NCBI RefSeq assembly: GCF_013122565.1
Contig: NZ_CP053258.1
Length of the DNA: 64,000 nucleotides
Source of the DNA: Escherichia coli
GTDB taxonomy: Bacteria > Pseudomonadota > Gammaproteobacteria > Enterobacterales > Enterobacteriaceae
Reading direction: 5' to 3' (one strand)
Part shown: positions 7,473-17,277 of the stretch, one piece after another
Position numbering within the stretch: the first letter of the stretch is position 1
Layout of the letters: each line of letters starts with the position of its first letter
Translations under genes and position numbers: made by a program
Notes under the pieces: generated by a model
Database searches by the model: none
What the model was told of the DNA's origin: nothing
Seen by the model: only the letters and a program-made list of their open reading frames with translations

Positions 7473-10034
7473 TTACACCAGACTCTTCAAGTGATAAATC
7501 CACTCCAGCGCCTGACGCGGGGTCAGTGAATCCGGGTCGAGATTTTCCAGCGCTTCCACCGCGGGCGAGGTTTCTTCCGGCACTGAAAGCAGCGACATCT
7601 GCGTACCATCAACCTGCGTAGCGGCGGCATTCGGCGAAATGCTCTCCAGCTCGCGCAGTTTCTGCCGCGCACGCTTGATCACCTCTTTCGGCACACCCGC
7701 CAGCGCAGCAACCGCCAGGCCGTAGCTTTTGCTCGCCGCGCCGTCCTGCACGCTGTGCATAAAGGCAATGGTATCGCCGTGCTCCAGTGCATCGAGATGC
7801 ACGTTGGCGACGCCTTCCATTTTCTCCGGTAACTGGGTCAGCTCGAAATAGTGGGTAGCAAACAACGTCAACGCTTTAATCTTATTCGCCAGATTTTCCG
7901 CGCACGCCCACGCCAGCGACAGACCATCGTAAGTGGACGTTCCACGCCCAATCTCATCCATCAGCACCAGACTGTACTCGGTGGCGTTATGTAAAATATT
8001 GGCGGTTTCGGTCATTTCCACCATAAAGGTTGAACGGCCGGAAGCCAGATCGTCCGCTGCCCCTACGCGGGTAAAGATGCGATCGATAGGTCCAATCTCG
8101 ACTTTTTGTGCCGGTACATAGCTGCCGATGTAGGCCATCAACGCAATCAGTGCGGTCTGGCGCATATAGGTACTTTTACCGCCCATATTCGGACCGGTAA
8201 TGATCAACATGCGACGCTGCGGCGACAGGTTCAGCGGGTTGGCGATAAACGGCTCATTCAGCACCTGTTCAACCACCGGATGGCGGCCTTCGGTGATGCG
8301 AATACCCGGTTTATCAATAAAGGTCGGGCAGGTGTAGTTCAGGGTATAGGCCCGCTCTGCCAGGTTAACCAGCACATCAAGTTCTGCCAGCGCGCTTGCG
8401 CTCTGTTGCAACGCTTCCAGATGCGGCAACAGCAGGTCGAACAGCTCTTCATAAAGCTGTTTTTCCAGTGCCAGTGCTTTGCCTTTTGAGGTGAGAACTT
8501 TATCTTCGTACTCTTTTAGCTCTGGAATAATGTAGCGTTCGGCGTTTTTCAGCGTCTGGCGGCGCATGTAGTTAATCGGAGCCAGGTGGCTTTGCCCACG
8601 GCTGATCTGAATGTAATAGCCATGCACCGCGTTAAAGCCAACTTTCAGCGTGTCCAGGCCGGTACGTTCACGCTCGCGGATTTCCAGACGCTCCAGATAA
8701 TCGGTCGCGCCGTCAGCCAGCGCGCGCCACTCATCCAGCTCTTCGTTATAGCCCGATGCGATAACACCACCGTCGCGTACCAGCACTGGCGGTGTGTCGA
8801 TGATTGCTCGCTCCAGCAGATCGCGCAGCTCGGCAAACTCGCCCATCTTCTCACGCAGCGCCTGTACCGGTGCACTATCGACGCCTTCCAGTTGCGCACG
8901 AAGTTCCGGCAGTTGCTGGAAAGCGTGACGCATACGGGCCAGATCGCGTGGGCGAGCGGTACGCAACGCCAGACGCGCCAGAATACGTTCCAGGTCGCCG
9001 ACCTGACGCAGTACCGGCTGCAGCTCGGCGGTGAAATCCTGCAATGCGCCAATAGTTTGCTGGCGCTCAAGCAACACGCGGGTATCGCGCACTGGCATAT
9101 GCAGCCAGCGCTTCAGCATACGGCTACCCATCGGCGTTACAGTGCAGTCGAGTACGGAAGCCAGCGTGTTTTCCGCACCACCCGCCAGATTCTGGGTGAT
9201 TTCCAGATTTCGACGCGTCGCGGCATCCATAATGATGCTGTCCTGCTCACGTTCCATGGTGATAGAACGAATATGCGGCAGGGTTGTGCGTTGGGTATCT
9301 TTCGCATACTGCAACAGACAACCGGCAGCACAAAGTCCGCGCGGCGCGTTCTCGACGCCGAAACCAATCAGATCACGAGTACCAAATTGCAGGTTCAACT
9401 GCTGGCGCGCGGTGTCGATTTCAAACTCCCACAGCGGGCGACGGCGCAGACCGCGACGACCTTCAATTAACGACATTTCAGCAAAATCTTCTGCATACAG
9501 CAGTTCCGCCGGATTAGTGCGTTGCAGTTCTGCCGCCATCGTTTCCCGGTCAGCCGGTTCGCTAAGGCGAAAACGACCGGAGCTGATATCCAGCGTCGCG
9601 TAGCCGAAACCTTTACTGTCCTGCCAGATAGCCGCCAACAGGTTGTCCTGACGCTCCTGCAACAGCGCTTCATCACTGATGGTGCCTGGCGTAACGATAC
9701 GCACAACTTTGCGCTCAACCGGACCTTTGCTGGTCGCCGGATCGCCAATTTGTTCGCAGATGGCAACGGACTCGCCCTGATTCACCAGTTTGGCGAGGTA
9801 GTTTTCCACCGCATGGTAGGGGATCCCCGCCATCGGGATCGGCTCGCCCGCTGAAGCGCCGCGTTTGGTCAGTGAAATATCCAGCAGTTGCGACGCGCGT
9901 TTTGCGTCGTCATAAAACAGTTCATAAAAATCACCCATCCGGTAAAACAGCAGGATCTCGGGATGCTGGGCTTTCAGCTTGAGATACTGCTGCATCATGG
10001 GCGTATGGGCGTCGAAATTTTCTATTGCACTCAT
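7473..10034 (-). CDS. mutS: DNA mismatch repair protein MutS
   Basis: 853-aa ORF with Walker [10 protein letters not shown] and MutS signature; recognised sequence. Confidence 0.97.
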
Positions 10035-10280
10035 GGGGTTATGTCCGGTTCCCTGATATTAAATGGGGTGTGATGGTTTTTATTTTCGTTGTAATCACAT
10101 AAGGCGCACATGATACCGGAGTTAATCATTTCAGGGGAAGAAGCGAACGGCGAGTTCTTGATGCTGGTTCCGGGAAAGATGCTGTTTTGCAGCTTTTGCG
10201 TGATGCTTATGAAGCAAGTACGCAAAATTGTATCGGTTGAATAAACCTCCTCCTTCAGAGCCATAGTCCCCTTTCAAATT

Positions 10281-10303
10281 AAGTTGTAGTATAAATACAC
10301 CTT
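10281..10303. promoter_or_regulatory. Putative NsrR-type operator (AAGTTGTAGTATAAATACACCTT) in the ygbA promoter
   Basis: About 17 of 23 positions match the NsrR 11-1-11 inverted-repeat consensus as I recall it; ygbA is a known NsrR target. Confidence 0.4.
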
Positions 10304-10320
10304 AAGAGTATGGAGGCAGT

Positions 10321-10674
10321 ATGTCCGGCAAGCGTATCTCTCGTGAAAAACTGACGATTAAAAAAATGATCGATCTTTATCAAGCGAAATGCCCGCAGGC
10401 GTCAGCGGAGCCGGAGCATTACGAGGCGTTGTTTGTTTACGCGCAAAAGCGGCTGGATAAATGTGTGTTCGGCGAACAGAAACCAGCCTGTAAGCAGTGT
10501 CCGGTGCACTGTTACCAGCCTGCAAAGCGTGAAGAGATGAAACAGATTATGCGTTGGGCCGGGCCGAGAATGCTGTGGCGTCATCCGATCTTAACCGTGC
10601 GTCATCTCATTGATGACAAGCGTCCGGTGCCAGAACTGCCGGAAAAATATCGTCCGAAAAAACCTCGTGAATAG
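10321..10674 (+). CDS. ygbA: Nitrous-oxide-stimulated promoter family protein YgbA
   Basis: 117-aa Cys-rich ORF between mutS and fhlA. Confidence 0.85.
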   Translation: MSGKRISREKLTIKKMIDLYQAKCPQASAEPEHYEALFVYAQKRLDKCVFGEQKPACKQCPVHCYQPAKREEMKQIMRWAGPRMLWRHPILTVRHLIDDKRPVPELPEKYRPKKPRE

Positions 10675-10710
10675 TATGCCGGACAGGCAGATCTGTCCGG
10701 CAATTTGCAG

Positions 10711-12789
10711 TTAAATCAATGCCGATTTATCAATTCCAAGCCGCTTCATCCGTGACAGCAGGGTCGTGCGTTTCAGCCCCAGACGTTGCGCAGCGCCTTT
10801 AGGCCCGGCAACCACGCCATTAGTTTCTTTCAGCACGCGCACAATCAACTGATATTCATCTTCGCCCTCCTGAGCGACAACCGTTGCGGCAGGCGGCGTT
10901 TCAGGTTCCGGTAAAGCAATATCTGGCAATGACAGCTGCAGCACGTTACCGCGTGTTAGCAATACCGCGCGCTCAATGACGTTTTCCAGTTCGCGTACGT
11001 TACCCGGCCACTCCATGTTGCTCAAGGTGCGCAGCGTCTCGGCAGGAATGCTGTCGATATTGCGCCCCAGACGACGGGCAATTTTGAAGGTAAAGGCTTT
11101 CGCCAGCAGAGGAATATCTTCCGGACGCTCGCGTAGTGGCGGCAGGTGAATCGGGAATACGTTCAGGCGGTAATAGAGATCGCTACGGAACTCACGGTCG
11201 GCGACCATTTTTTTCAGATCGCGGTTAGTCGCGGCGATTAGACGCACGTCCGTCTGAATGATTTTGTTGCTGCCGAGACGTTCAAACTCCTGTTCCTGTA
11301 ATACACGCAGCAACTTCGGCTGTAACTCCAGTGGCATATCGCCCACTTCGTCGAGGAACAGGGAGCTTTTATCCGCCAGTTCAAAACGACCAATGCGCTG
11401 GGCGCTGGCACCGGTAAAAGCTCCGCGTTCATGACCAAACAGATCGCTTTCCAGCAATCCGGCAGGCATTGCCGCGCAGTTCATTTTGACCATGCGGCGA
11501 GTATTACGTCCACTGAGATTATGGATAGCGCGGGCAATCAGCTCTTTACCCGTGCCAGTTTCACCGAGGATCAGCACGGTACTGTCACTTTGCGCCACCA
11601 TTTCAACTTGTTTAAGCACGCTGTACATGGCTTCGCTGCGGCCAATAATCTCGCCAAATTCACTATCAACATTGTTGAGCTGCTCGGTCAGGGCGAGGTT
11701 TTCATCAACCAGCCGTTCTTTCAGACGATGGATTTCCTGATAGGCGAGGGCGTTATCGACAGCGATTGCCACACGTTCGGCAATCTGGCGCAGTAAATTC
11801 AGATTGGTAGTGGTAAATACTTTCTCTTCGCATTGCGCCAGTTTCAGCACGCCCAGCATGGTGTCGCCAGACATCAGCGGTAACAGGCACAAGGTTTGAA
11901 TCTGGTTGCCCCAGGTGTCGAACAACATACGTTCATAGGGGGCTAAATCGTCCCGCTCGTGGAGATTGATCAGCAGCATCTCTTTACTTTTGAACACGCG
12001 TTCGGTGAGGGTTCCGGCTTCATCGACTTCACTCTGTTCGTGGGCGGGATGCTGTTTATCAAGATAGTGAGTGGAGTAGATGTTGAGTTTGTTTTTACGG
12101 TGGCTGCGTAAGACGATACTGATATCGTCAATATCGAAATAGTAATGGATTTCTTTGGCGACTTCGCTGACCAGTTCGTCCATATCCAGGCGGGAAAGCA
12201 CCGCGTTGGTGATGGCGACCAGGATGCGGAAGTTATCGCGTTCCCGGCATAACAACTCATAGTCAACATTGTTAACGACGCGACTCTGGATTTGTTCGGT
12301 GACGACAGAAACGATCTGCGTAAATGTTTGCAGACGATTGAACTCTTTTTCGCTCCAGGGGCGATCGTCATAACGAATAAATTCACAGCCACCAAAAATA
12401 TGCCCTTCTGCCGCCAGTGGCATCAGGCAATAGTGACCAAATTTTGGGTATAGCCCACCTGCGGCCAGCTGCGGCCAGGTTTCACAAAATTCTTCGTAAC
12501 TGCAATGCAGCGTATCAGGGCGCGACAAAATGCTGCGTACCGGACCGTGTGCCAGAACAGTTTCGTCTTCATATTTAATGGGGGTGTCTTTTTCACGCGA
12601 CGCGTAATAAGACGCACGTTGAGTCTGCGCTTGCCACAACACGATAGCCGCGTTGTCGGCGAGCGCAGAACGCTTTACCAGTTGCGAAAGAGCCTCACAC
12701 AGCGAGGCCAGATCGGGCTGCTGCAATAGTGTCCGAGTGATGTCGAACAACCCTTGCTGTCCGAGATCACTCATCGGTGTATATGACAT
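10711..12789 (-). CDS. fhlA: Formate hydrogenlyase transcriptional activator FhlA (sigma-54 enhancer-binding protein); start at MSYTPMSDLG
   Basis: GAF plus AAA+ sigma-54 activator domain ([14 protein letters not shown]) plus C-terminal HTH; ORF track begins 12 codons upstream. Confidence 0.93.
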   Translation of the reverse strand: MSYTPMSDLGQQGLFDITRTLLQQPDLASLCEALSQLVKRSALADNAAIVLWQAQTQRASYYASREKDTPIKYEDETVLAHGPVRSILSRPDTLHCSYEEFCETWPQLAAGGLYPKFGHYCLMPLAAEGHIFGGCEFIRYDDRPWSEKEFNRLQTFTQIVSVVTEQIQSRVVNNVDYELLCRERDNFRILVAITNAVLSRLDMDELVSEVAKEIHYYFDIDDISIVLRSHRKNKLNIYSTHYLDKQHPAHEQSEVDEAGTLTERVFKSKEMLLINLHERDDLAPYERMLFDTWGNQIQTLCLLPLMSGDTMLGVLKLAQCEEKVFTTTNLNLLRQIAERVAIAVDNALAYQEIHRLKERLVDENLALTEQLNNVDSEFGEIIGRSEAMYSVLKQVEMVAQSDSTVLILGETGTGKELIARAIHNLSGRNTRRMVKMNCAAMPAGLLESDLFGHERGAFTGASAQRIGRFELADKSSLFLDEVGDMPLELQPKLLRVLQEQEFERLGSNKIIQTDVRLIAATNRDLKKMVADREFRSDLYYRLNVFPIHLPPLRERPEDIPLLAKAFTFKIARRLGRNIDSIPAETLRTLSNMEWPGNVRELENVIERAVLLTRGNVLQLSLPDIALPEPETPPAATVVAQEGEDEYQLIVRVLKETNGVVAGPKGAAQRLGLKRTTLLSRMKRLGIDKSALI

Positions 12790-12862
12790 TTTGTTCTTCC
12801 AGGAAAGCACCGCAAAGCGGTGCAAAAGGTCATTGACTAACTATAGGAGATTTAGAATTTTA

Positions 12863-17153: not shown

Positions 17154-17277
17154 GCTGAGGCTTTGCCCGTTTTGCAGGCGTTACGCCTGTTTGGGGATGG
17201 GCGTGTCGATGAGTGTCGAAAATGACATTTCATCAGCATGTTTTCGTCAAAAATGACAATCACCTGAGGAATGCCTG

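Follow-up and report, generated by a model that had tools for sequence, protein, structure and literature searches.

The 23-bp inverted repeat AAGTTGTAGTATAAATACACCTT, which occupies exactly positions 10281-10303 on the plus strand of the 64 kb stretch of Escherichia coli DNA analyzed here (referred to as the window), very probably serves as the operator for control of ygbA by NsrR, an [Fe-S] repressor of the Rrf2 family, with promoter occlusion as the proposed mode of repression. The assignment of this 11-1-11 repeat as an NsrR operator draws on its position weight matrix (PWM) score, on its conservation in 80 species and on the CFT073 version of the site, which Mehta et al. 2015 (PMC5320621) give in their Table 4. 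The operator is already known; control of ygbA by NsrR has been published for K-12, CFT073 and Salmonella (PMC5320621, PMC2884951, PMC1274295), and the window carries this documented site as a rare allele that is neutral with regard to the PWM score. The original prediction of an NsrR-like inverted repeat was borne out with respect to its coordinates.

The ygbA locus and the significance of its operator

Based on the open reading frame (ORF) list and the RefSeq annotation, the window represents the mutS, ygbA and fhlA region of the E. coli chromosome; for a segment of 671 bases surrounding the operator, a match was found in 5,419 of the 5,426 complete E. coli genomes (best match, 99.3%). In the ORF list, ygbA (10321-10674, plus strand; supported also by Pfam PF11756 and the RefSeq annotation), which encodes a Cys-rich protein of 117 amino acids, lies between mutS (7473-10034) and fhlA (10711-12825), both on the minus strand. 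The product of 10321-10674 is YgbA, as judged by its match to Pfam PF11756 (YgbA_NO; E = 1.7e-40). Direct reading of the sequence places a Shine-Dalgarno sequence, GGAGG, at 10312-10316 (plus strand), and a G-rich block is kept ahead of the ygbA ATG in the orthologues. The operator had been predicted to lie about 15 bp upstream of the ygbA start; its upstream placement was correct, while the gap between its 3' end and the ATG (10321) is 17 nt.

Three further features of the locus were observed. The region between mutS and ygbA includes an ORF of 44 amino acids (10110-10244, plus strand; "hypothetical protein" WP_000611931.1), which is annotated in many RefSeq E. coli genomes, is absent from the K-12 annotation and overlaps the likely promoter and leader region of mutS. 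Matches to this ORF in tblastn searches were found in Escherichia only, and it is unlikely to represent a conserved gene, because in E. albertii and E. whittamii the identity of its product is only 64-66%, as compared to 96-98% for YgbA in the same species. Within both this intergenic region and the ORF there is also a terminator-like hairpin at 10181-10193 (plus strand; GCTGTTTTGCAGC followed by TTTTGCGTGA), for which no variation was found in six aligned E. coli sequences. Between the convergent ygbA and fhlA genes, a G+C-rich hairpin of 9 bp (GCCGGACAG-GCAGAT-CTGTCCGGC, 10678-10701) may represent a terminator common to both genes; it was missing from the terminator scan because its T tract (AATTT) is weak.

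When compared to the consensus AAGATGCATTTNAAATGCATCTT, the site matches at 17 of 23 positions (i.e., 16 of the 22 informative positions plus the N), as had been predicted, and 8 of the 11 pairs of positions across its two arms are self-complementary. No other 23-mer in the 64 kb window matches the consensus at 17 or more positions. The bare consensus count is nevertheless weak evidence on its own and is not significant, because 27% of simulated 64 kb windows (first-order Markov) hold at least one site that reaches 17/23. When up to 3 mismatches to the full 23-bp consensus were allowed, a search of the window yielded no matches, and a search for the 14-base NsrR core gATGyAT-N5-ATrCATc of Rodionov et al. 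2005 (PMC1274295) was uninformative, since the 10 matches observed in the window with 3 mismatches compare to 8.9 expected.

The site was also scored with a symmetric PWM, trained on the 16 ChIP-seq-positive 11-1-11 sites of CFT073 in Table 4 of PMC5320621 with ygbA excluded, and thus derived from one study of one strain. With 22.9 bits, the operator ranked first among the 63,978 positions in the window and outscored 14 of the 16 training sites. In 300 dinucleotide-preserving shuffles, the maximum averaged 13.7 bits and never exceeded 21.6 bits, so that this score was not reached once, and the per-position probability under an iid model was 7.5e-9, equivalent to approx. 0.04 sites expected per 5 Mb genome. 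The skeleton AANNTGYA-N7-TRCANNTT likewise occurred once in the window, as compared to 0.06 expected occurrences, and the mismatches of the operator to the consensus fall at positions that tolerate substitution. The PWM scan proposed as a check of the original prediction hence returned no weak score; it placed the site above all others in the window and above most of the experimentally bound sites used for training.

The second-best PWM match in the window was AAATGACATTTCATCAGCATGTT (17220-17242; 17.4-18.4 bits), located between hycA and hycB, 36 nt before the GTG start of hycB. This sequence is the CFT073 hycB NsrR site with one substitution, and its score is circular because the CFT073 hycB site was part of the training set. 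In CFT073, that site corresponds to the second-strongest NsrR ChIP-seq peak (16-fold), and hycB is 100-fold down with nitrate.

Conservation of the site and a predicted promoter overlapping it

For comparison among species, one genome per species was searched by YgbA alignment, which provided 80 loci from 80 species, mostly Enterobacteriaceae (Escherichia, Citrobacter, Salmonella, Klebsiella, Enterobacter, Kluyvera, Leclercia, Lelliottia, Raoultella and others) and one Rahnella. In all 80 species, the 23-mer with the best PWM score in the approx. 3.3 kb ygbA locus preceded the ygbA start by 12-25 nt, and in 71 of them this proximal site scored at least 15 bits. The conservation profile anchored on the site forms a sharp island of 23 bp, in which positions 1, 2, 6-8, 11, 12, 15-19 and 21-23 carry 1.1-2.0 bits, as compared to 0-0.4 bits for most flanking positions. 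As these species have diverged enough to randomize neutral sequence, the sharp island against nearly unconserved flanks indicates that the operator is under selection. The island furthermore includes positions 15-23 (approx. -4 to +5 relative to the start site predicted below), where a bare promoter would show no conservation.

Only one of the 80 species scored poorly. In Enterobacteriaceae bacterium UBA5654, the sequence AAGAGGTAACATTCAAGCCTCTT, located 18 nt before ygbA, reached 4.1 bits, although its AAG...CTT ends and its palindromic outline are retained; a diverged operator or a diverged NsrR specificity in this lineage may account for the low score.

Two features of the conserved footprint are left unexplained by the NsrR motif, i.e., an asymmetry in the conservation of the two arms and a conserved T/C-T-G upstream of the site. 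Operator positions 7-12 read TAnnAT without exception in 81 sequences. Most genera have TATTAT at these positions, K-12 has TAATAT, Salmonella TAAAAT, some Citrobacter TAGAAT and the window TAGTAT. Position 7 is T in 100% of the sequences, whereas its mirror position prefers the equivalent of C in 85%; positions 11 (A in 98%) and 12 (T in 100%) carry 1.81 and 1.99 bits, respectively, as compared to 0.52 bits for position 13, the mirror of position 11. The T/C-T-G (G in 90%) is kept 17 to 15 nt before the operator, which is exactly 17 bp upstream of TAnnAT.

A T/C-T-G separated by 17 bp from TAnnAT has the signature of a sigma-70 promoter. On this basis, we predict a -10 hexamer TAGTAT at 10287-10292 (operator positions 7-12), a -35 hexamer TAGTCC at 10264-10269 (TTGnnn in most species) and a transcription start at the A at 10299 (operator position 19), all on the plus strand; this A is 95% conserved and is located 7 nt downstream of the -10 hexamer predicted here. 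A start at 10299 would give ygbA a leader of approx. 22 nt. When 10000-10760 was scanned with a simple sigma-70 consensus, no promoter was detected, because the E. coli version of the -35 hexamer, TAGTCC, is weak. Searches of the literature and of transcription start site data gave no experimentally mapped start for ygbA. The non-consensus operator bases T7, A11 and T12 are those that a -10 hexamer needs, which suggests that the operator departs from its consensus because its left arm and center double as the -10 hexamer.

Other placements of the promoter, as well as an RNA element, were considered and rejected. A -10 hexamer at TATAAA (operator positions 10-15) or ATAAAT (positions 11-16) would lack the conserved final T or the second-position A, and the conserved TTG would then be 20-21 bp away. 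An upstream promoter composed of TTGAAT (10237-10242) and CATAGT (10262-10267), for which the operator would act as a roadblock, has a spacer of 19 bp and falls in a region that is not conserved across species. A scan of 9900-10800 against Rfam gave no match at E ≤ 1, and the fold of the predicted leader was unremarkable (z = 0.94).

Allelic variation and alternative explanations

In K-12 MG1655, the ygbA site is AAGATGTAATATAAATACATCTT (NC_000913, 2856824-2856846, minus strand), which shares with the site in the window the locus, the 11-1-11 layout, the distance of 17 nt to the ygbA ATG and essentially the PWM score (22.8 and 22.9 bits, respectively). The site in the window differs from it by the substitutions A4T, A9G and T20C, and the K-12 site, with its more symmetric arms, comes closer to the textbook consensus (19/23 by hand count, as compared to 17/23). 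The CFT073 site, given as AAGGTGCATTTATATTACAACTT by Mehta et al. 2015 (PMC5320621, Table 4) and reading AAGTTGTAATATAAATGCACCTT as its reverse complement, has T4, C20 and the gene context in common with the window, and differs by two substitutions (A9 and G17 in CFT073; G9 and A17 in the window). Overall, the six E. coli alleles sampled differ at positions 4, 9, 17 and 20 only, and all score between 21.9 and 23.5 bits. The exact 41-nt allele of the window, with G9, was present in 26 of the 5,426 complete genomes, O169:H41 strains among them. Two lineage-specific SNPs were seen: G at operator position 9 (10289), which alters the third base of the predicted -10 hexamer from TAATAT to TAGTAT, and T for C directly before the ygbA ATG (10320). 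It seems unlikely that such natural variation tunes NsrR occupancy between E. coli lineages, with G9 changing promoter strength rather than repressor binding; if it did, basal ygbA expression and the NO threshold would differ between strains.

According to PMC5320621, regulation of ygbA by NsrR in E. coli was reported by Bodenmiller and Spiro 2006, and it had been included as a personal communication in Rodionov et al. 2005 (PMC1274295); in a Salmonella nsrR mutant, ygbA mRNA is up 31.8-fold (PMC2884951). The picture is less uniform with regard to binding, and one may hypothesize that the operator is real while NsrR has a lower affinity for the T4/C20 allele shared by the window and CFT073 than for that of K-12, so that ygbA would be only partly repressed or would respond to NO partly via another regulator. 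Consistent with this, the CFT073 site AAGTTGTAATATAAATGCACCTT showed no NsrR ChIP-seq peak (PMC5320621), whereas the K-12 promoter with AAGATGTAATATAAATACATCTT was bound by NsrR in the ChIP-chip study of Partridge et al. 2009, as this study is cited in PMC5320621, and C at position 20 contributes -0.45 bits to the PWM score as compared to +0.66 bits for T. The total scores of all alleles are, however, within 1.6 bits of each other, and positions 4 and 20 are degenerate both across species and among bound sites. Moreover, in CFT073 ygbA belongs to the genes with the strongest induction by nitrate (PMC5320621), which implies tight basal repression, and the authors of that study regard the missing peak as a probable false negative. 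We thus consider weaker binding of the T4/C20 allele unlikely.

Two explanations that dispense with NsrR altogether are far less probable still. If the site were no more than an A/T-rich core promoter with a partial palindrome that is similar to an NsrR site by chance, with no repressor bound, the ease with which simulated windows yield 17/23 matches and the plausible -10 hexamer in the center of the site would both be accounted for. Such a promoter is very hard to reconcile with a PWM score that no shuffled sequence reached, with the published NsrR dependence of ygbA or with the retention, in 80 species, of AA at positions 1-2, G6, ATGCA at positions 15-19 and CTT at positions 21-23, which lie outside the -10 hexamer and mirror the left arm. 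It is equally improbable that the inverted repeat is the target of another regulator, e.g., the Rrf2 paralogue IscR or a factor of the FNR/CRP type, even though proteins of the Rrf2 family bind A/T-rich operators of similar size. The core of the IscR type 1 motif is GACT...AGTC, and TTGAT-N4-ATCAA is a motif for FNR-type sites; neither was found when the site was judged by reading of the sequence rather than with an IscR or FNR matrix. In addition, the fit of the site to the NsrR matrix exceeds that of most bound NsrR sites, and the genetic evidence favors nsrR.

Control by NsrR remains our preferred explanation. Counted against it are the CFT073 site without a peak, the fruitless search for a mapped start, the poor -35 hexamer TAGTCC with the negative sigma-70 scan, the non-significance of the bare consensus and the derivation of the PWM from one study of one strain. 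The claim that ygbA is an NO-responsive NsrR target agrees with the PWM results, with the presence of the site in 80 of 80 species and with the literature (PMC5320621, PMC2884951, PMC1274295).

Proposed mode of repression

The E. coli NsrR operators of ytfE, hmp and hcp resemble that of ygbA in that each is a 23-bp inverted repeat of the 11-bp AAGATGCATTT near a start codon and mediates a repression that is relieved by NO. The ytfE site is nearly perfect (AAGATGCATTTAAAATGCATCTT), whereas the left arm of the ygbA site appears instead to be adapted as a -10 hexamer (T7, A11 and T12). A more distant parallel is the hmpA1 operator bound by the [4Fe-4S] NsrR of Streptomyces coelicolor (ScNsrR), a winged helix-turn-helix dimer (PMC9338935); this operator also has 23 bp and the AA...TT ends found at ygbA, but comes from another organism and has a divergent core (AACACGAATATCATCTACCAATT). 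In the crystal structure of ScNsrR with its operator, the central 7 bp are without base contacts and can be changed at unchanged affinity (PMC9338935). Operator positions 9-12 of ygbA fall in this uncontacted center when the two are compared, and the center of the ygbA operator could therefore accommodate part of a -10 hexamer.

We propose that an NsrR dimer would bind the 23-bp 11-1-11 inverted repeat and cover roughly -18 to +5. As the operator would contain both the -10 hexamer (positions 7-12) and the predicted start (position 19), bound NsrR would exclude RNA polymerase; occlusion as the mode of repression is suggested by the predicted -10, -35 and start-site assignments. NO would then nitrosylate and degrade the [4Fe-4S] cluster, upon which NsrR would leave the DNA and ygbA would be transcribed. 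For ScNsrR, cluster loss driven by NO dissociates the complex with DNA (PMC9338935), and the literature as a whole supplies binding in K-12, derepression in an nsrR mutant, induction by NO or nitrate and the loss of DNA binding upon cluster loss. The nsrR gene lies outside the window; at the level of the species, it was found in 5,425 of the 5,426 complete E. coli genomes, with an identity of at least 99% in 5,297 of them.

Overall, the identification of this operator is correct but ordinary, as a reading of the sequence alone arrived at a documented site, and it is of little importance beyond annotation. Judged from its sequence, the NO-responsive control of ygbA is probably intact in the strain represented by the window, despite three substitutions as compared to K-12. 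The footprint of the operator over 80 species adds modest value, in that it provides a concrete, testable picture of how NsrR may repress ygbA.
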